Numbered from the stretch's first letter, positions 2,362 to 64,000 are shown. The stretch: 64,000 nt of DNA from Patescibacteria group bacterium (GCA_028714495.1 JAQTMH010000002.1:7219-71218), one strand, 5' to 3'. The notes: generated by a model from the sequence alone, not told the origin. A program made the numbers and translations.

Positions 2362-3807
2362 ATGGATCCAACGGAAAAAACAATTAAAGGGGAATCGCGG
2401 GAAAAATGGTATACCCAGGGTTTTAACGCGGTGCCGGCCTTTATTGTACCGAGCGCCTGGAGTGGTTTTACCATGAAATCAACACTTGGATTTGGCTATT
2501 CCAAGTTTCTTTTTCATTTCAAAAATGATTATTGCGAAATGCGTTACTTAAAATCTGATATGCGCCGTAACTGGCTGAAGATACAAAAAATATTGAAAGT
2601 AAAGCCCGACTATTTTATCAAAATGAGGCGACTTTATAAATCAAGATTTCAGGAATATCTGACGGCTTTTTCATCTATCGATCGTCAGAATTTGGCTTCA
2701 TTGTCCGATCGTGAACTTTTTAACATGCTTAAACGTTGCGTAGAAGCCCAGATTGAATCGGTTGGTACAAGCCATCTGATTGAATCAGCGGGTTCTGCCC
2801 TGGAAGCTGAATTTGCCAAACATCTTACCGAAATAGTTCGTGATAAAAAAAAGTTTAATCTATGCTTTAGTATCTTAACCACTCCCACGGCTCTTTCGTT
2901 TGTCAGCCGGGAAGAACGCGACTTGCTGAAAATTAAAAAACTTAAGTATGGACGAAGGAACGCGGCCCTGAAGAGACACTATTTTCAATATCATTGGATT
3001 CGCAACAGCTACGTTGAAGAAAAAAAACTGTCAGTGGAATATTTTTCACGCCGGCTAGACAAGCTTCAACCCGCATCAACCAATCTAGCGGCACCCCGGC
3101 GAAAAAAGGCAAAGCTGATAAAAAAACTTAGCTTAAACCGCTCCGCCGTCCAGCTGATCAAATGGATTGATACTTGCACGATCTGGCAGGACGAAAGAAA
3201 AGAAAACGTCTTACGCTCTATCACCTATCTGGGGCGCGTATTAAATGAGATTAGCCGCCGCTCAGGCCTTCCTCGTAATTATCTGCACAATCTTAGTTCA
3301 CTGGAAATGCTGAAATTAAGCTCGGTCCGTGAGATTATATCGCTAAAAAATATTTTAGCAAAACGTTCACGAGGCTGTTTTATCCTGGCTAAACCAACCA
3401 GTGAAATATTTTTCTACGGGAAGAATTACAATGCCTTAGGCCAAGTCAAGAAGATTTCCTCCCAATCTCTAGTCGCCTCCAGCGATGAACTTCATGCTAC
3501 CACCGCCAACGTGGGCACGGCGATTGGTCGAGTCATTGTCTGTAAAGGCCTTGAATCCCTGAAAAAAGTAAAGCCTGGAGATATAATAGTCACCTCTATG
3601 ACGCGACCGGAATTCGCTCCGGCATTAAAAAGAGCCGCCGCCATCATTACGGACGAAGGCGGAATTACCTGCCATGCCGCTATTGTTGCTCGTGAGCTGG
3701 GCATACCCTGCGTCATCGGCGCAAAAATTGCCACAAAATTATTTAGAGACGGTATGATTGTTGAGGTCAGGGCAAACCACGGAATAGTAAAAATACTGAA
3801 GTACTAA
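2362..3807 (+). CDS. PEP-utilising enzyme mobile-domain protein (phosphoenolpyruvate synthase / rifampicin phosphotransferase-like C-terminus)
   Basis: C-terminus GDIIVTSMTRPEFAPALKRAAAIITDEGGITCHAAIVARELGIPCVIG is the PEP-utilising enzyme mobile (phospho-His) domain. I place the start at the internal ATG 2362 (MDPTEK...), not the upstream 2224. Confidence 0.6.
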   Translation: MDPTEKTIKGESREKWYTQGFNAVPAFIVPSAWSGFTMKSTLGFGYSKFLFHFKNDYCEMRYLKSDMRRNWLKIQKILKVKPDYFIKMRRLYKSRFQEYLTAFSSIDRQNLASLSDRELFNMLKRCVEAQIESVGTSHLIESAGSALEAEFAKHLTEIVRDKKKFNLCFSILTTPTALSFVSREERDLLKIKKLKYGRRNAALKRHYFQYHWIRNSYVEEKKLSVEYFSRRLDKLQPASTNLAAPRRKKAKLIKKLSLNRSAVQLIKWIDTCTIWQDERKENVLRSITYLGRVLNEISRRSGLPRNYLHNLSSLEMLKLSSVREIISLKNILAKRSRGCFILAKPTSEIFFYGKNYNALGQVKKISSQSLVASSDELHATTANVGTAIGRVIVCKGLESLKKVKPGDIIVTSMTRPEFAPALKRAAAIITDEGGITCHAAIVARELGIPCVIGAKIATKLFRDGMIVEVRANHGIVKILKY

Positions 3808-3875
3808 ATCCCATCACAAAAACGGGCGGCTCGTAACCACCCGTTTAAATATGTTTTTATTTGGTTTTTCTAAAT

Positions 3876-5309
3876 TTATATTACGATAACCGGCGTGCCT
3901 ACATCCACCCGGTCATAGACGATTTTCGATGCTGGCACTGGCAAGCGCACGCAACCGTGTGAAACCTTGCGACCGAGATGGTTCTCGCCTTCGTAATAAA
4001 CACCGCCGCCTTTTAATCTCCAGAAAGGCAATCCGTGAATCCCGTGTCCTTTGCTGGTGAACGCCATCCAGTTCGGCATATAAAGCTGGTAGGGTTTTGA
4101 GTAGGCCAGAGGCGCCTTGCTTAAAACCTTGTAAGTTCCGTGGGGCGTGTCCATACCGGGTTTGCCCGTGGAAACGGGATACTCGGCTATTTTAATTCCA
4201 TTTTCGTAATAATATAGCATCTGTTTTTCAGTATTGATCTCGATGTATTTTGCCAGGTCAATCCTGCCTTCGGCGATCCGGCGTCCAGGCAAGGTAAGTA
4301 TTTCGGCTTTTGAATCGCCCTGGATATCAGCCGCGGCGACTGAAACACCGCCTCGAAAATTCGTTTCATAGGCAAAGAAGTTTAGACCGAGCGCCTTGCC
4401 GTCGCCCTCAAAAGCCCTCACTTGCGGCCCACCCCCGGCGTTGGCTCCGGCTAGAACTTCATCTAAGCCATCGCCGTCAATGTCACCGCTGGCAACATTC
4501 ACTCCGCCAAGAAAATTTTCCGGGAAAGCCAAAAAGTCCCCCAGGATGGTTTTTTGTTCATTGGTTTTATATACCCTCACCCAAGCTTTGCCGTAAGCGT
4601 GGATTCCCATTACTATTTCTTCCTCTGTTCCGCCGTCAACATTGGCGCAGGCAACCGATACTCCGCCCTGATCAGTCGTATTAAACGGCCGGAAATCTAA
4701 GCCGGTATATTTGCCGTAGCGATCAAAGACCCTTACGTGCGGCTGGCTATTTACCCCTGAACCTACGACAATCTCCTTCTTGCCGTTTCCATCCACATCG
4801 CAGGCAGCTACTTGAATGCCTCCGTTATAATCAGTGGCAAAAGCGAAAAAGCCGGGAGTGAACTTCTCTTTGCCGGCGCCATCAAATATCCTGACCTGAG
4901 CGCCACCGCGAAAACGTGGCGCCGTGATTATTTCTTCCTGGCCATCGCCATCAAGATCTCCGGTTGCTATCTCAATCCCGCCTTGAAAACTTTCCGGGTA
5001 GGCGTAAAAGTTTGTTATCGGCGATCCGTCCAAGCGAAAAGTTCTAACTTGAGGTCCGCCGTATGGGCCAGCGCCGACAATAATCTCTTTAACGCCATCA
5101 CCGCCTAGATCGCCTACGGCCATCGAACCGCCCCCTTTAAATGTTTTTTCAAAGGCATAAAACTCTTTAACATTCTTCAGGGTCGAGCTGTCTGTTATTT
5201 TTAACAGAGGCTCCCGGGTAGTCGAAGCCAGCGCCGGCTCGGCAAACAAAAAAGCCGTACCGGCAAAGGCACCGCCTAAAATAAAAAGGGTTACTAAAAA
5301 TCTTTTCAT
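3876..5309 (-). CDS. Secreted FG-GAP/VCBS-repeat protein with C-terminal L,D-transpeptidase (YkuD) catalytic domain
   Basis: N-terminal signal peptide MKRFLVTLFILGGAFAGTAFLFA. Repeated GDLDGDG..EI..G..GGGPQVR units. C-terminal HGIHG...GRKVSHGCVRLP motif (His/Cys catalytic pair of L,D-transpeptidases). Confidence 0.7.
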   Translation of the reverse strand: MKRFLVTLFILGGAFAGTAFLFAEPALASTTREPLLKITDSSTLKNVKEFYAFEKTFKGGGSMAVGDLGGDGVKEIIVGAGPYGGPQVRTFRLDGSPITNFYAYPESFQGGIEIATGDLDGDGQEEIITAPRFRGGAQVRIFDGAGKEKFTPGFFAFATDYNGGIQVAACDVDGNGKKEIVVGSGVNSQPHVRVFDRYGKYTGLDFRPFNTTDQGGVSVACANVDGGTEEEIVMGIHAYGKAWVRVYKTNEQKTILGDFLAFPENFLGGVNVASGDIDGDGLDEVLAGANAGGGPQVRAFEGDGKALGLNFFAYETNFRGGVSVAAADIQGDSKAEILTLPGRRIAEGRIDLAKYIEINTEKQMLYYYENGIKIAEYPVSTGKPGMDTPHGTYKVLSKAPLAYSKPYQLYMPNWMAFTSKGHGIHGLPFWRLKGGGVYYEGENHLGRKVSHGCVRLPVPASKIVYDRVDVGTPVIVI

Positions 5310-6278: not shown

Positions 6279-6434
6279 ACCAGGGTAGATTAATCAGACA
6301 ACCTATTAACCTTTTAACTAAAAGGTTTTAATGATAAAATGTTTTACTGGCTTGCAATATTTATCCGAGTTTTGATATAATACACATGTTCTGGAGGGGC
6401 CTAGCCGTCCCTTCCAACCTCCGCCAGGGGTGTT

Positions 6435-24484: not shown

Positions 24485-24507
24485 CATTCGCTTAATCAAT
24501 AAACATT

Positions 24508-24535
24508 CACCTTTTAGCTAAAAGGTGTTTTTTAT
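24508..24535 (+). terminator. Intrinsic terminator, member of a recurring palindrome family CACCTTTTAGCTAAAAGGTG plus T-run
   Basis: Perfect 9-bp stem, 2-nt loop, followed by TTTTTTA. Related copies at 6308-6327, 34667-34688 and 35036-35055. Confidence 0.6.
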
Positions 24536-25456: not shown

Positions 25457-25551
25457 TACGGTAATTTAAGGTATCATACAAAAATAATTATGTCAAGTAT
25501 ATAAAAGCAGGCGGGCAAACGTTTGCCCGCCTACATCTATTTTTTTCTTAA

Positions 25552-34666: not shown

Positions 34667-34688
34667 ACACCTTTTAGTTAAAAGGTGT
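34667..34688. terminator. Palindromic hairpin ACACCTTTTAGTTAAAAGGTGT overlapping the stop of the ArsR-like gene (terminator family)
   Basis: Same palindrome family as 24508 and 35036. Confidence 0.4.
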
Positions 34689-35035: not shown

Positions 35036-35055
35036 TCACCTTTTAGTTAAAAGGT
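35036..35055 (-). terminator. Intrinsic terminator hairpin CACCTTTTAGTTAAAAGGTG downstream of the EamA gene
   Basis: Perfect palindrome 26 nt past the stop at 35081, U-rich tail on the minus strand. Confidence 0.5.
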
Positions 35056-35080
35056 GTTATTGCTAATATTGCTAATTATA

Positions 35081-35968: not shown

Positions 35969-36132
35969 TTGGTTAAATTAATAAATATTCCCAGCTTATA
36001 ATATTTATAAGTTCATTATCAGTCGTTGTGCCGTGAACGAAATAGGTTATTTTAATGCTCATAATAGTGTTTTTCTCGTAGCCAGGGTCTTTAGACCCGC
36101 AGCCACACGGAATAATAAATGGTTCTATGTGC

Positions 36133-36156
36133 AGGCGAACAAGCGCTTGTTCGCCT
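36133..36156. terminator. Perfect 24-nt palindrome AGGCGAACAAGCGCTTGTTCGCCT with flanking T/A runs; bidirectional terminator downstream of rarA
   Basis: Seen directly. Followed by GGGGTTATTTTTTATT on plus. Confidence 0.5.
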
Positions 36157-36162
36157 ACGGGG

Positions 36163-49645: not shown

Positions 49646-49681
49646 CAAGTTTGAAAATATGGCATTCCCACCTTTCTCCAG

Positions 49682-49755
49682 TCGGGGTGGAGAGACTTGA
49701 ACTCTCGACCTCACGCACCCGAAGCGTGCGCTCTAGCCAACTGAGCTACACCCCG
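49682..49755 (-). tRNA. tRNA-Pro (anticodon CGG)
   Basis: Reverse complement CGGGGTG-TA-GCTC-AGTTGGCTA-GAGC-G-CACGC-TTCGGGT-GCGTG-AGGTC-GAGAG-TTCAAGT-CTCTC-CACCCCG-A folds as a canonical 74-nt cloverleaf. No encoded CCA. Followed by a hairpin/T-run terminator. Confidence 0.85.
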
Positions 49756-49907
49756 ACTGAAGAAACGTGTTGTACGTCTTACCCTATTTTATCAATAATG
49801 GTTAAAAAAATAAAGGCTGTTTGACGGCTGCTGGTAAATCGTATCCTAATATATTTTTTTAGCAAACCTTAGCAAAATTAAGTGCATAACTGGTGCAAAA
49901 GCCGGCA

Positions 49908-59350: not shown

Positions 59351-60514
59351 TTATTCGTATCTTAATGATTCAACCGGATTAAGCTTCGAGGCGCGCCGGG
59401 CTGGAAAAAACCCAGCCACTATGCTGATCACGATCGAGAAAATAAGTACGTAAATCAGTAGTCGCGGCGTCACTAAAAAGAGCAGTAGACCTTTGGATCG
59501 CGATGATTCATTGAGAATCCAGGTCATCAGCACGCCAAGGCCGATACCGGCTAACCCGCCGATCACGCCAATCACTCCAGCTTCAATCAAAAACTCTTTT
59601 AGGATGCGGCTGGACCGAGCACCAACCGCTTTTTTTATGCCGATCTCGCGAGTCCGCTCAATCACCGAAAAGGTCAGAGTATTCATAATTGAGAACCCTC
59701 CGACAATGATGGCAATCAGCGCGCCGGAAAGAATGATCATATTGAAAATTACCATGCTTTGGCCGATCTGGTCTTTGAAGTAAGACGGACCATAGGCTTT
59801 CACGCCCTCAACTTGCTCCTGAATCCTTTTGGCGACTTCCTCACCCTGGGCGACATCTTTCAGATACACATCAAATTCAGAGACAATGGTTTCGGGTTTG
59901 ATGCTTTGTTTAAAGGCCTCGGGCAAAGTCTCATAAGTAAGCTCCTGCGCGTCCCGGAGTGAGACAACGGCTGAATTGTCCGGCGCGGTCAAAGTCTTGT
60001 CATAGACGCCAATCACTTCAAAATCCTTGCCGCGCAACTTAACGGTTTTGCCTACATCTGTTTTCAAGTTCTTAACGAGATCAGAACCAAGCGCAACCTT
60101 ACCGCGGTCATCGGCGGTTAAATCCCGGCCCCTGGCGATTTTTATCTTAAATGTTTCATACTGAGTGGCTTCTGTGTCACCAGATACTATCATTGAGGGC
60201 ATGCCAAAAGAAACGTTCGTTTCTTCATCGAGCATTAAACTAACGACCGGCGAGGCGTAAACCACGCCTTCGACTTTCTGAATAGCCGCTTGTTTATCCA
60301 TGGTTAGCGGCGCGCCGCCCATCATCAATGAAGCGCGCGCGTCAACCACCATTACTTTCGTGCCGTAGTAGTCCACACCCCCCTTAACCAAAAGGCTTAA
60401 TTTTTCCGACATCGCGCCCATGACTGTCAGGGCAAATACGCCGATAACGATTCCGCCGACCGTCAGGACTGTCCGGAGCTTCCGGCGAAGAAGGTTCCTG
60501 AGAATTATACGCAT
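59351..60514 (-). CDS. ABC transporter permease, FtsX/MacB type (large periplasmic domain plus 4 TM)
   Basis: N-terminal TM, about 220-aa extracytoplasmic domain, C-terminal FtsX-like helices (GIKKAVGARS motif). Confidence 0.8.
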   Translation of the reverse strand: MRIILRNLLRRKLRTVLTVGGIVIGVFALTVMGAMSEKLSLLVKGGVDYYGTKVMVVDARASLMMGGAPLTMDKQAAIQKVEGVVYASPVVSLMLDEETNVSFGMPSMIVSGDTEATQYETFKIKIARGRDLTADDRGKVALGSDLVKNLKTDVGKTVKLRGKDFEVIGVYDKTLTAPDNSAVVSLRDAQELTYETLPEAFKQSIKPETIVSEFDVYLKDVAQGEEVAKRIQEQVEGVKAYGPSYFKDQIGQSMVIFNMIILSGALIAIIVGGFSIMNTLTFSVIERTREIGIKKAVGARSSRILKEFLIEAGVIGVIGGLAGIGLGVLMTWILNESSRSKGLLLFLVTPRLLIYVLIFSIVISIVAGFFPARRASKLNPVESLRYE

Positions 60515-60747
60515 AGCGAGTTGATTAGTTATAAAATATTAACATTTCAACACCAACGCGCGCCACCGGACACATACCGCTGGAGCGATTGTGCTAAAAG
60601 GCATTATTTGAATTATAAGTCATTAACTCATACTGTCAAGGCGACACCATATTAACTTGACTTTTTCTACTCCCAAAGGTAAGTTAAAAAGCTCAAAATA
60701 AAGCGAAAACCGGTCTTTCATAACCTATAGACCAAAGGAGGGGGCTT

Positions 60748-61923
60748 ATGCAAAGGACTAGCATGCAAGGAGTGGAGCGGGTGTACTGTGATGTCTGCAT
60801 CCACGCCCTAGTTGCGGCCTGGCGTGAACTGCTGGATTCACCAGCTAGCGAAACGCTCAGACATACCAAATACGGCAAGGGTGATACGCTGGGTCTGGAC
60901 GCAATCACCGAAATCATTATTCACGACCGGCTGTGTGACTTTGACCGCCATGCCATTCTGGTCACCGAGGAATTGGATGATGATGCCCGCGAGCGCTGGC
61001 CAACTGACGCTGAACCGATCCGGCAGCCGCTCATGTTCTTCTCTGACCCGACTGACCGATCCAGACAACTCAGAGAATACATCGAGACAATCAGCAGGGA
61101 AACGCCCATCAGAAGGCTCGGACTGCTCATGGGCCGGGACAAGGGCATCCAGGTCTGGGAAAGAATGTTCGAGAAACCGGCAATGATCACTGGAGCTACT
61201 TCTTCCATCACCTGCGTGCGCAAAGGCCAGATCATCTTCTCGGTCATTCTCAACATCGTCACCCAGACCATTTTCGTGGCGACTCCACTGGGCAATGTCG
61301 TGATGCGCCTGCCCCGGTTCGGTGATCCAGTCTGCGATCAAGTCGACCTGAACTATGTTCTGGGGCATGGCCGGCCACTGATTTTCCCGCCAGCTAAGAT
61401 CACCTGCCAACGGCCAGATGACTTCAAGCGTTTTGTTACCTTCCTCGGTAAAGAAGACTATGAGAAGAACTTTATTGACAGTATGGTCTTCGTTGAGAAT
61501 CCCGATGACTTTCTGCACCACACCCTACCTGGCGGACCGGCAAGAATCCTCTATCTCTCCGAGCTCCAGCGTGGCCATGGACCGATTGGCTTTATCATGG
61601 CCAATGGCGAAAAGATCGGCGAATGGATCCACTGGCTGGCCTTTGCCAAATTCGCCATGCGCGAGCACGGCGGCCACCAGCTCAGGATTTTCGAGATCGC
61701 CATTCCCCGACCCCATTACAAAGACGGCGTCCTGATGTCCACGGCTCCGGCTTACAGCATTTTCAGCCAGCTTGGTTCGACTGTCTATCTGGATGTCAGC
61801 CGGTTGCGGACCTTTGAGACACCGAGCCGCTTCCGCTCCATGCTCGTGGTAGCGCCGTTTGACAACGAACGGATCGCCCACATCATGCGGCAGCACTGCT
61901 ACCGCGAAATCGACCTGTCTTAG
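60748..61923 (+). CDS. Hypothetical protein, G+C-rich segment
   Basis: 391 aa. Strong RBS AAAGGAGGGGG 5 nt upstream of ATG. Minus-strand ORFs 60838..61521 and 60921..61295 are probable antisense artefacts. Confidence 0.5.
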   Translation: MQRTSMQGVERVYCDVCIHALVAAWRELLDSPASETLRHTKYGKGDTLGLDAITEIIIHDRLCDFDRHAILVTEELDDDARERWPTDAEPIRQPLMFFSDPTDRSRQLREYIETISRETPIRRLGLLMGRDKGIQVWERMFEKPAMITGATSSITCVRKGQIIFSVILNIVTQTIFVATPLGNVVMRLPRFGDPVCDQVDLNYVLGHGRPLIFPPAKITCQRPDDFKRFVTFLGKEDYEKNFIDSMVFVENPDDFLHHTLPGGPARILYLSELQRGHGPIGFIMANGEKIGEWIHWLAFAKFAMREHGGHQLRIFEIAIPRPHYKDGVLMSTAPAYSIFSQLGSTVYLDVSRLRTFETPSRFRSMLVVAPFDNERIAHIMRQHCYREIDLS

Positions 61924-62018
61924 TACAAACCTACCCTCGTTAGTAATAACGGGGGTGTTTTTATTTCGATAAATAGTATTAATTAGGCTGGAGTAATTAA
62001 CTAACCTATTATTTCGAT

Positions 62019-62576
62019 CTAATATTTATTGAAATTTGAAATCTCGCTGATGTCTTTCCGGTTTTTCTTATGGACTTCGTAACCATCTTTTGGATAGCCA
62101 AGGGTTATCAGCAAACCGATTTGTTGGCGCTTTGGTACGGCTAAAATCTTTTTCACCTTCTGTTCATCAAACCAGCCGACGATGCAGGTACCCAGGCCTA
62201 ACTCCGTAGCCTGCAGGCAAAAATGCTCGGTGGTAATGCCGATGTCAATCAGCGGTAATTCCCTATTATCCAGCCAGGAGATAATCTGGGCCGGCGTGGC
62301 GATTTTCGGCGGCTCGATCACCACCGCTATGATCACCGGCGCTTTGAATAAATGTTTATTCAGAACTGGCAGGAGCGGACTGGTGGCGGCTTTAGCGATT
62401 TTATTTTTCACCTCGGCATTATCAACCACGACAAATTTCCAGGGCTGGGCATTTCTGGCTGACGGCGCCAGCCTGGCGGCTTCGAGGCACTGCAAGATTT
62501 TATCCTTTTCCACCGGCTGATTTGAATATTTCCGTACGCTTTGACGTTGTTTTATTATGTCTAATAGGTCTTTCAT
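62019..62576 (-). CDS. Nitroreductase family protein
   Basis: RQSVRKYSNQPVEKDKILQCLEAARLAPSARNAQPWKFVVV is the nitroreductase N-terminal signature. Confidence 0.8.
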   Translation of the reverse strand: MKDLLDIIKQRQSVRKYSNQPVEKDKILQCLEAARLAPSARNAQPWKFVVVDNAEVKNKIAKAATSPLLPVLNKHLFKAPVIIAVVIEPPKIATPAQIISWLDNRELPLIDIGITTEHFCLQATELGLGTCIVGWFDEQKVKKILAVPKRQQIGLLITLGYPKDGYEVHKKNRKDISEISNFNKY

Positions 62577-62587
62577 GGTACTTGATT

Positions 62588-62612
62588 TATTGGCAGGGGT
62601 GGAGGGAATCGT
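62588..62612 (-). repeat. tRNA 3'-end-like fragment (copy 1; ...GGACGATTCCCTCCACCCCTGCCA)
   Basis: Resembles the T-arm/acceptor 3' end of the adjacent tRNA-Trp but cannot fold as a tRNA. Confidence 0.4.
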
Positions 62613-62671
62613 CCCGCATCAAAGAGCGCGATATTTTACGTTGCTACGGTTTTTACCCAACCTATCGTCAT

Positions 62672-62755
62672 GTGGCAGGGGCGGAAAGTGTCGCACTCTC
62701 GTTTCTGGTTTGGACCCAGCCGTTCGCGAACGGCTGGGTGGAGACCGTTAATCGT
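62672..62755 (-). repeat. tRNA 3'-end-like fragment (copy 2; ...GACACTTTCCGCCCCTGCCA) preceded by perfect palindrome CCCAGCCGTTCGCGAACGGCTGGG
   Basis: Shares the CCGCCCCTGCCA tail with tRNA-Trp. No cloverleaf possible. Confidence 0.4.
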
Positions 62756-62761
62756 ATAAGG

Positions 62762-62835
62762 TGGCAGGGGCGGAAGGGATCGAACCCTCGTCTGAGGTTT
62801 TGGAGACCTCCGTCCTACCACTGGACGACGCCCCC
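62762..62835 (-). tRNA. tRNA-Trp (anticodon CCA)
   Basis: Reverse complement GGGGGCG-T-C-GTCC-AGTGGTA-GGAC-G-GAGGT-CTCCAAA-ACCTC-AGAC-GAGGG-TTCGATC-CCTTC-CGCCCCT-G-CCA is a 74-nt cloverleaf with encoded CCA. Confidence 0.85.
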
Positions 62836-62861
62836 GTCATCTTATGCGATTAAACTAGAAT

Positions 62862-63107
62862 CTATTTTAAATGAAGTCTTGCTAGAAGTCCATGATATGC
62901 TGAACCATACATTTTCAATTTGCGCTCTCTTTCGGCTGCCGATTGTTGATCGTAATAGGCTTCAAAATATATCAATTTCAAAATACCCATTCTTCGAGTC
63001 GTGTATGTCGACCCTCTTTTATGCTCCGACATTCGCCTTTCAATATCATTTGTTGTACCGACATACTTCTTGCCTCTATTATCACACAGCAAATAAATAT
63101 AATACAT
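62862..63107 (-). CDS. GIY-YIG nuclease superfamily protein (UPF0213-like small endonuclease)
   Basis: MYYIYLLCDNRGKKYVGTTNDIERRMSEHK matches the GIY-YIG motif. I place the start at the internal Met at 63107. Confidence 0.7.
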   Translation of the reverse strand: MYYIYLLCDNRGKKYVGTTNDIERRMSEHKRGSTYTTRRMGILKLIYFEAYYDQQSAAERERKLKMYGSAYHGLLARLHLK

Positions 63108-63139
63108 ATTACCCTTCCAGCTCCCAGCCGATCTTCTTT

Positions 63140-63559
63140 TTATTTCTTCATTTTTAAGTACAGCCATTCCCGCGCCATTTCCGACTGCTCAAAGAATTTC
63201 AGCTTACCGGTCTCTTTCGTGGTTGCCAGCAATAGCTTGCGAATGGCCACCTGAAAGGTGTGGCCCGCTTTCAGCACGGCAGTTCTTAAGATTCTGTCGC
63301 TCTTTAACAGATCAGAGAACAGCTCATTCAGCGCTAGGGCTTCTTTCTGGCTGACCGCCACCTTGCTCATGTCCACCAGCGCCGACCAAAAGGCGTTTGG
63401 GAATTGCTCCTTAAGCTTGGCCAGCTCGCCCCGGAACCAAAGCAGTTCAGCTAGAGCGCTATCCTGGCTGTTTCTATCTGGACCCAGCTTCAATTCAATG
63501 ATATTCTGAGCTTCCAATCGCATCGTGCTTTGGGTCTCGGGACAAGTGCTTAAAGGCAT
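63140..63559 (-). CDS. Hypothetical protein (possible STAS-like fold, very tentative)
   Basis: 139 aa. C-terminal KLLLATTKETGKLKFFEQSEMAREWL loosely resembles the STAS-domain C-terminus. Immediately downstream of rpmG. Confidence 0.35.
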   Translation of the reverse strand: MPLSTCPETQSTMRLEAQNIIELKLGPDRNSQDSALAELLWFRGELAKLKEQFPNAFWSALVDMSKVAVSQKEALALNELFSDLLKSDRILRTAVLKAGHTFQVAIRKLLLATTKETGKLKFFEQSEMAREWLYLKMKK

Positions 63560-63564
63560 AAAAG

Positions 63565-63720
63565 CTATTTTGTTTCTTTATGCAAAGTGTGTTTCTTGCA
63601 TTGTTTGCAGTACTTCTTGAGCGACAGCCGGTTCTTTAAAACCTTTTTGTTCTTGCGCGAATTGTAATTTACTTTTTTACACTCGGTGCATTCGAGTTTG
63701 ATAAGATTATCCTGTGACAT
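63565..63720 (-). CDS. rpmG: 50S ribosomal protein L33 (zinc-binding type)
   Basis: My translation [51 protein letters not shown] matches the bL33 pattern (C.EC..NY...KNK....L.LKKYC..C.KHT.H.E.K). Not in the ORF track (<60 aa). Confidence 0.8.
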
Positions 63721-63783
63721 CGTTTTCTTTCATTTATATTATTAATTTATGTAATTGAATCGTTGCCCCGCCTGCCGATCGCC

Positions 63784-63859
63784 TGGAGCCGATGGTCGGA
63801 TTCGAACCGACGACCTACTGTTTACAAAACAGTTGCTCTACCAACTGAGCTACATCGGC
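63784..63859 (-). tRNA. tRNA-Thr (anticodon UGU)
   Basis: Reverse complement GCCGATG-TA-GCTC-AGTTGGTA-GAGC-A-ACTGT-TTTGTAA-ACAGT-AGGTC-GTCGG-TTCGAAT-CCGAC-CATCGGC-T-CCA is a 76-nt cloverleaf with encoded CCA. Confidence 0.85.
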
Positions 63860-63860
63860 G

Positions 63861-63905
63861 CTCGGCGACTGGCGGGCGGGTCTACCAACTGAGCTACTCC
63901 GGCAA
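63861..63905 (-). repeat. Partial tRNA 5' half (acceptor plus D-arm: GCCGGAGTAGCTCAGTTGGTAGA) duplicated immediately upstream of tRNA-Thr; tRNA fragment / pseudo-tRNA
   Basis: Near-identical to the first 24 nt of tRNA-Thr, then diverges (CCCGCCCGCCAGTCGCCGAGC). No anticodon or T arm. Confidence 0.3.
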
Positions 63906-64000
63906 ATGGCTTTTGTGAGACAAGCCACAACTAACCAATTAACCAATAAACTAATTAACTAATTAACAAATCATATTACTTCAAGTCTTGCCATTATGTC

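Follow-up and report, generated by a model that had tools for sequence, protein, structure and literature searches.

We propose that a tRNA-Trp locus in the DNA analysed here, a 64,000-nt stretch of a Patescibacteria metagenome-assembled genome (the window), is the decayed form of a cassette found repeatedly at the tRNA-Trp genes of Patescibacteria, and we put the probability of this reading at roughly 60%. The cassette consists of a GIY-YIG nuclease gene, a spare tRNA-Trp and a 24-26-bp palindrome centred on TCGCGA, and its interpretation as a selfish element is the best supported one. No description of the cassette or of the palindrome was found in the open-access full-text literature (subscription journals lay outside this scope). 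Below, L-numbers denote the genome or metagenome loci that were compared, U1 the upstream 5' half of a tRNA gene, U2 the intact enclosed tRNA and U3 the downstream 3' half.

The genes of the locus lie on the minus strand in the order tRNA-Thr (63859-63784), rpmG for ribosomal protein L33 (63720-63565), the lineage-specific ORF139 of 139 aa (63559-63140), the GIY-YIG nuclease ORF (62862-63107), tRNA-Trp (62762-62835), two partial tRNA-Trp copies termed fragments 2 and 3, and a nitroreductase gene (62576-62019). The intact tRNA-Trp(CCA), with encoded CCA, is the functional copy and corresponds to U2; it is called by ARAGORN and scores 62.4 bits with the Rfam tRNA model. Both fragments end in ...CCCCTGCCA, at 62673 and 62591, and the successive 3'-end copies are spaced by 89 and 82 nt. 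The 16-mer TGGCAGGGGCGGAAGG occurs four times in the 64 kb at three or fewer mismatches, against 0.49 occurrences expected, and none of 100 shuffles reached four; the match at 62367, which has three mismatches and falls within the nitroreductase gene, looks like chance. A preliminary description of the locus had reported the intact tRNA-Trp, two downstream copies of its 3' end about 90 nt apart, a perfect 24-nt palindrome in one of them and a small GIY-YIG gene beside the tRNA, and all of this is borne out. It had also advised checking that the fragments are not themselves tRNAs; ARAGORN makes no call on either, and neither has an Rfam match at E<=10. The locus is 100% identical between contigs assembled separately from two sequencing runs, so the assembly collapse that had been raised as a caveat is unlikely, and we discarded an assembly artefact on this ground. 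A spurious plus-strand ORF of 211 aa (62522-63157) covers the tRNA and both fragments. Upstream of the tRNA-Thr region, positions 63929-63971 hold four copies of an AT-rich sequence that repeats every 8 nt (AACTAACC / AATTAACC).

Fragment 2 (62673-62713, minus strand) preserves the 3' half of an older copy of tRNA-Trp. In the 5' to 3' direction it opens with GGTCTCC (62740-62746), the end of the anticodon stem and 5' side of the loop and hence the start of U3, followed by the 26-nt palindrome A-CCCAGCCGTTCGCGAACGGCTGGG-T (62714-62739, perfect 24-nt core at 62715-62738) with TCCA on both sides, and then by CCAAACC, a variable region, the T arm GAGAG-TGCGACA-CTTTC and, last, CGCCCCTGCCA (CGCCCCT-G-CCA). 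In other words, it corresponds to a tRNA-Trp that starts at the anticodon loop and runs through to the 3' end, with a palindrome inserted in the loop, and the earlier statement that the fragments copy only about 20 nt does not hold for it: the similarity to the intact tRNA extends over 40 nt at 80% identity. It matches the intact tRNA-Trp genes of L009 and L013 at 29/39 positions against 23/39 for the adjacent gene, has the T loop TGCGACA of those two genes, and shows in its T stem a compensatory change from G-C to A-T relative to the adjacent tRNA. Fragment 2 derives from another tRNA-Trp allele and not from the gene beside it. The intact L009 (691-764) and L013 (2686-2759) genes are themselves unusual in that their T loop has G in place of the near-universal U55.

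Fragment 3 (62591-62620, minus strand), GCGGGA|CGATTCCCTCCACCCCTGCCA, is the oldest remnant, and its sequence is found unchanged before the nitroreductase gene of the sister genome described below. Here GCGGGA is joined to CGATTC of the T loop, after which come the 3' side of the T stem, the acceptor 3' strand and CCA; the GCGGGA resembles the right-hand arm of a palindrome, fused to the T loop. The same junction of palindrome and CGATTC is present in L035, L037, L047, L055, L056 and L065, and a flank of the GGTCTCC type precedes the palindrome in L007, L012, L013, L018, L034 and others. The best supported account of fragments 2 and 3 is that they are two generations of displaced resident tRNA-Trp copies. 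We considered a retro-copy origin and find it unlikely, because the downstream halves have no CCA wherever the intact gene does not encode CCA (L034, L054 and L063).

The palindrome in fragment 2 is the single TCGCGA-centred palindrome in the 64 kb. Across loci the family has the consensus (A)CCC[AG][GC]C..n..TCGCGA..n..G[CG][CT]GGG(T) over 24-26 nt, and 8 of 10 arm pairs covary over 38 distinct palindromes; the corresponding figure of 95% paired positions is partly circular because the sites were chosen as palindromes. In 380 kb of nuclease loci, all 43 TCGCGA palindromes fall between -191 and +156 nt of the nuclease ORF. They are embedded in U1 and U3 and never in an intact U2, and the type of arm follows the nuclease subclade. 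Related loci have a full palindrome 36-72 nt upstream of the GIY-YIG start codon. Upstream of the window nuclease a right arm alone survives, GATCGGCTGGG (compare GAACGGCTGGG), an 11-nt minus-strand remnant at 63123-63133 that is 91% complementary to 62728-62738; nothing else survives of the cassette's left end, and this piece is fused to the stop codon of ORF139. Hybrid junctions recur in two forms, D loop|palindrome|anticodon loop and anticodon loop|palindrome|T loop, and from their sequences they look like deletions between two palindromes, which would explain the progressive erosion of the remnants. The window has other zero-loop palindromes, namely GCAGGCG...CGCCTAC of 28 nt in two copies (25507-25534, 36131-36158) and a second family, (C)ACCTTTTAG[CT]TAAAAGGTG, in three copies and a variant (6308-6327, 24507-24528, 34667-34688, 35037-35056).

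The nuclease (MYYIYLL..., 81 aa plus stop) belongs to the GIY-YIG superfamily by its match to Pfam PF01541 (E=1.7e-14, 54.3 bits against a cut-off of 22.6), and its stop codon lies 26 nt ahead of tRNA-Trp. The 81 residues are counted from an internal ATG; a longer ORF of 101 aa starts at 63167 and overlaps ORF139, and the Pfam match covers its residues 21-85, nearly the entire protein. Positions Y2, Y5, Y15, G17, R24, H29 and E49 are invariant in a subfamily alignment that includes the window protein, which keeps every residue invariant in its subfamily. The closest solved structures are the UPF0213 proteins 1ZG2 and 1YWL, and profile matches to them (E=3.3e-7 and 1.9e-5) place the protein with the stand-alone UPF0213 / COG2827 type. 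The exact window protein is absent from a collection of 5.8 billion proteins. Public gene sets leave the ORF uncalled, with no gene at all in L001 and a 146-aa call on the opposite strand in L003.

Known GIY-YIG homing endonucleases such as I-TevI and the Seg proteins join the catalytic domain to a DNA-binding domain. The 81-aa protein has no separate DNA-binding domain, the Pfam match spanning almost all of it, and so departs from homing endonucleases in this respect; in its presence/absence polymorphism and in the replacement of a flanking marker (the sister locus lacks the gene and has a tRNA-Trp of 72.4% identity) it behaves like one. We found no relatives on viral contigs, which counts against the cassette reading, and a phage vector was ruled out for this reason.

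We scanned 185,579 species genomes and recovered 80 loci, mostly from Patescibacteria, using alignment A2 for the search because alignment A1 was too diverse. ORF139 was dropped as a synteny anchor, since its three homologues among 5.8 billion proteins yield few sister loci by synteny. A tRNA gene lies within 300 nt of the nuclease gene in 37 of the 80 loci. The closest nuclease homologues (54-69% identity) also adjoin tRNA-Trp, and nearly all of the approximately 27 closest have a same-strand tRNA-Trp 4-53 nt downstream; the tRNA-Trp is usually downstream of the nuclease gene and upstream of it in a few loci. The tRNA-linked nucleases form clades 1 and 5, and clade 6 holds the unlinked bulk. 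A U1 comprising tRNA positions 1-35, often 100% identical to U2, stands upstream of the nuclease gene, and a U3 was detected downstream in about ten loci when each U2 was searched against its own flanks. The comparison establishes an architecture: the same layout with a GIY-YIG gene recurs in dozens of genomes, in most of them at the native tRNA-Trp position after rpmG, and it is repeated together with the palindrome family at tRNA-Arg(CCT) in L025 and at tRNA-Cys in L055.

Several loci show other arrangements. A clade-6 GIY-YIG gene in L049 (2300-2880), with no tRNA near, has direct repeats of about 100 nt on both sides, each holding the palindrome CCACGTCGTTCGCGAACGACGTGG and further hairpins. 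At 3780-4530 (minus strand), L007 has a second GIY-YIG gene, distant in sequence (31% identical), between 5' halves of tRNA-Tyr. The anticodon loops of these halves are interrupted by CCCGCC...GGCGGG insertions, and an intact tRNA-Tyr comes next; this locus is a parallel system with a different tRNA and a different hairpin family. A Y1_Tnp (IS200-like) gene is found about 840 nt downstream of the rearranged tRNA-Trp locus in L005 only (L005 6417-6869, L006 1555-2085).

The split-gene topology is clearest in L034, where the order is U1, palindrome, nuclease gene, U2, GGTCTCC, palindrome and U3. There the acceptor strand GGGAGTG of U1 pairs with CACTCCC of U3, and U2 uses GGGTCTG/CAGACCC. When the outer flanks of the palindromes are joined and one TCCA is removed, ARAGORN recognises a tRNA-Trp at three independent loci (L018, L034 and L129/L148). 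In L018 the reconstructed gene has the same sequence as U2, and in L034 (53/75) and L148 (51/72) it is another allele. Because the rebuilt allele differs from the enclosed one, a resident gene was split in the anticodon loop by the cassette, with replacement; the stem differences are compensatory, so these are probably once-functional alleles and not products of decay.

The allele replacement is also seen between close relatives. L004 is a sister genome (GCA_028717285.1) whose ORF139 protein is 94% identical. At the DNA level, window and sister are identical at tRNA-Thr (100%) and nearly so at rpmG (99.4%), the nitroreductase gene (97.5%) and ORF139 (95.5%); the tRNA-Trp genes are 72.4% identical. 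A tRNA-Trp this divergent within flanks of 95.5-100% identity implies that one lineage replaced its gene by a foreign allele. Only 203 nt separate ORF139 from the nitroreductase gene in the sister, and its locus has no nuclease gene, no fragment 2 and no palindrome. The polymorphism among relatives that the preliminary description proposed to look for is thus present, the two genomes differing in nuclease gene, fragment 2 and tRNA-Trp allele, and the conservation of the fragments in all relatives that would have spoken for functional RNAs fails for fragment 2; fragment 3 is shared. In the more distant L005, a tRNA-Trp 5' half comes right after the ORF139 stop and is followed by another, different intact tRNA-Trp.

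These comparisons bear on an account without mobility, in which nuclease and tRNA-Trp form an ancient, vertically inherited operon, the nuclease is a housekeeping enzyme, the partial copies arose by local tandem duplication and decay, and the palindrome is an independent REP-like repeat that survives only in dispensable copies. The gene pair occurs in many Patescibacteria classes at the canonical tRNA-Trp position after rpmG, and a cassette at the native position fits vertical inheritance as well as homing. Several loci have flanking halves that match the intact gene at 100%, the outcome that gene conversion or local duplication would give, and most palindromes among the matches listed are solo. 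Counting against the cassette reading, moreover, the intact tRNA-Trp (U2) retains in its anticodon loop the very sequence interrupted in the resident copy. We nevertheless consider the operon account unlikely: the halves rebuilt in L034 and L148 give a valid tRNA of an allele other than the enclosed gene, their stem differences are compensatory, the sister tRNA-Trp is 72% identical inside flanks of 95.5-100%, and the layout is recreated at tRNA-Arg and tRNA-Cys.

The palindrome also has a life away from the nuclease. A pattern scan of metagenomes returned at least 125 palindromes on at least 120 contigs. Among the matches listed, 19 of 125 have a nuclease gene within 300 nt and 106 do not, and most are solo and intergenic; with 106 of the 125 listed lacking a nearby nuclease gene, something else could move the palindrome. 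An exact 4-nt direct repeat brackets the 24-nt core at 28 of 107 non-redundant sites among the matches listed (0.4 expected), and a 5-nt repeat at none of these 107. The 4-nt repeats in the matches listed are TCAA/TTGA (16), TCCA/TGGA (8), TAAA (2) and two singletons, and A...T stands directly outside the core at 76 of the 107 listed sites, so that the element can equally be described as one of 26 nt with a 2-nt duplication at TNNA. The target duplication marks the palindrome as itself mobile, a tiny insertion element with target TNNA and a 4-bp duplication. It is MITE-like in having two 12-nt inverted-repeat arms and a target duplication of fixed length (4 nt, in the matches listed), and at 24 bp it is far shorter than typical MITEs. 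Solo palindromes often read TTGA|palindrome|TTGACA and abut a -35-like hexamer (L092, L097, L110, L142, L167, L182, L194, L206 and others). Among the matches listed, a terminator-like T-run follows the palindrome at 28 of 107 sites and 16 sites hold longer nested palindromes (for example L107 and L109). Several metagenome contigs end at or in a palindrome, as do L003 and L009.

Based on these data, the history of the window locus may be reconstructed by analogy with other loci, the window copy having no 5' half. In complete copies the cassette sits in the anticodon loop (TCCA) of a resident tRNA-Trp gene, with the resident 5' half left upstream and the 3' half downstream, each half ending in a palindrome, and the tRNA-Trp supplied by the cassette would keep the cell alive. 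The window copy would have lost its upstream half down to one palindrome arm and kept the right-hand part of the split-gene structure: fragment 2 is probably the 3' half of the allele that was resident before, its anticodon loop still holding the palindrome, and fragment 3 is probably an older remnant, already present before the sister genome split off. The GIY-YIG protein presumably makes the break, at TNNA sites or at the palindrome, and the cassette may spread either by homing-like repair-copying or as a composite unit with a palindrome at either end; the remnants would then be eroded as palindromes recombine with each other. That the nuclease drives this mobility is suggested by its linkage and co-variation with the other parts and by the precedent of SegB, discussed below. 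We advance a broader proposal only tentatively, with more doubt than confidence: the 81-aa nuclease and the 24-bp palindrome might together be a minimal transposition/homing system, in which a cut at TNNA moves the palindrome (4-bp duplication) and a pair of palindromes carries the nuclease and spare tRNA into a resident tRNA gene, essential and single-copy, at its anticodon loop, a selfish system that would drive horizontal turnover of tRNA alleles in Patescibacteria.

Alternatively, the fragments could be functional RNA elements within the tRNA transcript, such as minihelices, processing signals, terminators or decoys. In favour of this, the sister genome conserves fragment 3, L013 has a similar layout of tRNA, fragment and fragment, and the T-runs noted above after 28 of 107 listed solo palindromes resemble terminators. 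Such a role is improbable given that the sister has no fragment 2, that fragment number, extent and position differ between loci, that the junctions of palindrome-to-palindrome deletions show erosion, and that Rfam returns no match.

Integration at att sites typically leaves copies of the tRNA 3' end as direct repeats downstream of the gene, and the preliminary description had read the fragments as scars of this kind. According to this view, the tRNA 3' end was the target of repeated integration by an element with an integrase, which has since disappeared. The repeats do fit this pattern and exceed chance, and the wider claim of mobile-element activity stands as regards a mobile-DNA history, polymorphism and the involvement of a GIY-YIG gene; the att interpretation itself is largely refuted and we give it very little credence. 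The spacers are 48-56 nt long and hold no cargo. None of the six largest ORFs around the locus (59.3-63.7 kb) has an integrase domain, the neighbouring ORFs being MacB/FtsX, nitroreductase, L33 and two without a Pfam match. Fragment 2 reaches the anticodon loop, holds a palindrome and comes from another allele, the 5' halves upstream of the nuclease gene in relatives are not a product of 3'-end integration, and the layout recurs with a GIY-YIG gene. Spacer length, the absent integrase and the allele origin of fragment 2 were decisive in rejecting integrase att scars.

GIY-YIG ORFs are typical intron passengers, and the nuclease has a weak NCBIfam match to grpIintron_endo. That the locus is what remains of a group I intron which interrupted the anticodon loop of tRNA-Trp and carried a homing-endonuclease ORF is hardly credible even though group I introns are common in Patescibacteria tRNA genes (PMC13011429), since the NCBIfam score of 24 bits is far under the cut-off of 56, an intact tRNA lies inside the would-be intron, and group I or II introns were ruled out by covariance models without a match in the window at 60000-64000 (E<=10) or in nine related loci (E<=1).

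The intact tRNA-Trp has a further feature in its flanks. Its leader (62836-62853, minus strand) is complementary to the trailer (62748-62761, minus strand, found in an inverted-repeat search) plus GCCA, and the two extend the acceptor helix as an inverted repeat with 25-nt arms that are 84% complementary. In the window clade, inverted repeats beside tRNA genes lengthen the acceptor helix by 9-14 bp (49671-49765, 62748-62853, 63762-63885; also L004, L005 and L013), with 11/12 pairs at tRNA-Pro and 12/12 at tRNA-Tyr of L013. A survey of 88 Patescibacteria tRNAs ruled this pairing out as a general Patescibacteria trait: leader and trailer form a mean of 5.1 pairs out of 12 against 4.4, and at least 9 of 12 pairs are formed in 12% of the 88 against 1.1% of controls, mostly in the window clade. 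The tRNA-Thr region (gene at 63784-63859, minus strand) shows a related arrangement. A 23-nt copy of the tRNA-Thr 5' end (63881-63903, 91% identical) precedes the gene, which is enclosed by two GC-rich arms (63860-63880, 63762-63783) that pair with one another, the right one being followed by GCAAC. This looks like an older tRNA-Thr whose D loop was split by a hairpin-bounded unit that carries the present gene but lacks a nuclease gene. One or two tRNA-Thr 5' fragments with CCCGCC...GGCGGG hairpins in the D loop are also present in each of L004, L005 and L007.

If correct, the cassette reading would explain how a cell with a very small genome survives the invasion and replacement of an essential single-copy tRNA gene. 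The reading would also offer a mechanism for horizontal turnover of tRNA alleles in Patescibacteria and a first biological context for part of the large UPF0213 family of tiny GIY-YIG proteins. The palindrome is a very small mobile element with a clear target duplication, and its frequent position just before TTGACA boxes means that it could affect gene expression. There are practical consequences as well: the palindrome ends contigs, gene callers missed the nuclease gene in this genome, and tRNA halves can mislead annotation.

Each part of the cassette has counterparts in known systems. The UPF0213 / COG2827 proteins (BH0048, EF2693, E. coli YhbQ) have the same single-domain size as the nuclease and detectable similarity to it (E=3e-7 and 2e-5); the tRNA-linked clades 1 and 5 are distinct from the bulk clade 6, which has no such linkage. 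To our knowledge, neither a mobile-element role nor a tRNA linkage has been assigned to BH0048, EF2693 or YhbQ. Integration by integrases at tRNA genes resembles the cassette in that the tRNA is kept functional and the displaced piece stays nearby as a direct repeat, but the cassette has no integrase, carries an entire replacement tRNA and not a 3' segment, breaks the resident gene in the anticodon loop with remnants on both sides, and leaves those remnants tens of bases from the gene and not beyond kilobases of cargo. REP/RAYT systems (REPtrons) pair REP sequences, short GC-rich palindromes dispersed in intergenic DNA, with a Y1/HUH transposase. The cassette likewise has a GC-rich, intergenically dispersed palindrome and a candidate mobilising gene flanked by palindrome copies; it falls outside REP/RAYT in that the flanked enzyme is GIY-YIG and not HUH, and the palindrome differs in its zero-length loop, its 4-bp target duplication and its tie to tRNA gene halves.

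In Neurospora, mitochondrial palindromes flank tRNA genes. Fungal mitochondrial palindromes share with ours the target duplication, the position beside tRNA genes and genomes rich in GIY-YIG ORFs; the cassette differs in its bacterial host, its palindrome family and its tight linkage to one nuclease clade. Among them, the GC-rich palindromic clusters typified by yeast GC42 are small, duplicate their target, occur sporadically and merge or nest (PMC4478555). A further parallel is found in the tRNA cluster of T-even phages, where the GIY-YIG SegB genes co-localise with tRNA genes and drive segmental tRNA-gene amplification, SegB homologues being statistically associated with tRNAs (PMC2330249; PMC13096335). 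Both systems place a GIY-YIG nuclease gene among tRNA genes, in both the tRNA region is preferentially inherited or replaced, and as in SegB the nuclease would drive duplication of tRNA-gene segments. SegB cuts leave mostly 2-nt 3' overhangs (PMC2330249), which might fit a 26-nt element with a 2-nt duplication at TNNA. Unlike SegB, the cassette protein is an 81-aa enzyme without a DNA-binding domain, and the cassette is chromosomal in Patescibacteria, with none found on viral contigs. It is also almost specific for tRNA-Trp and has a dedicated palindrome, and it physically splits the resident gene while enclosing a spare copy.
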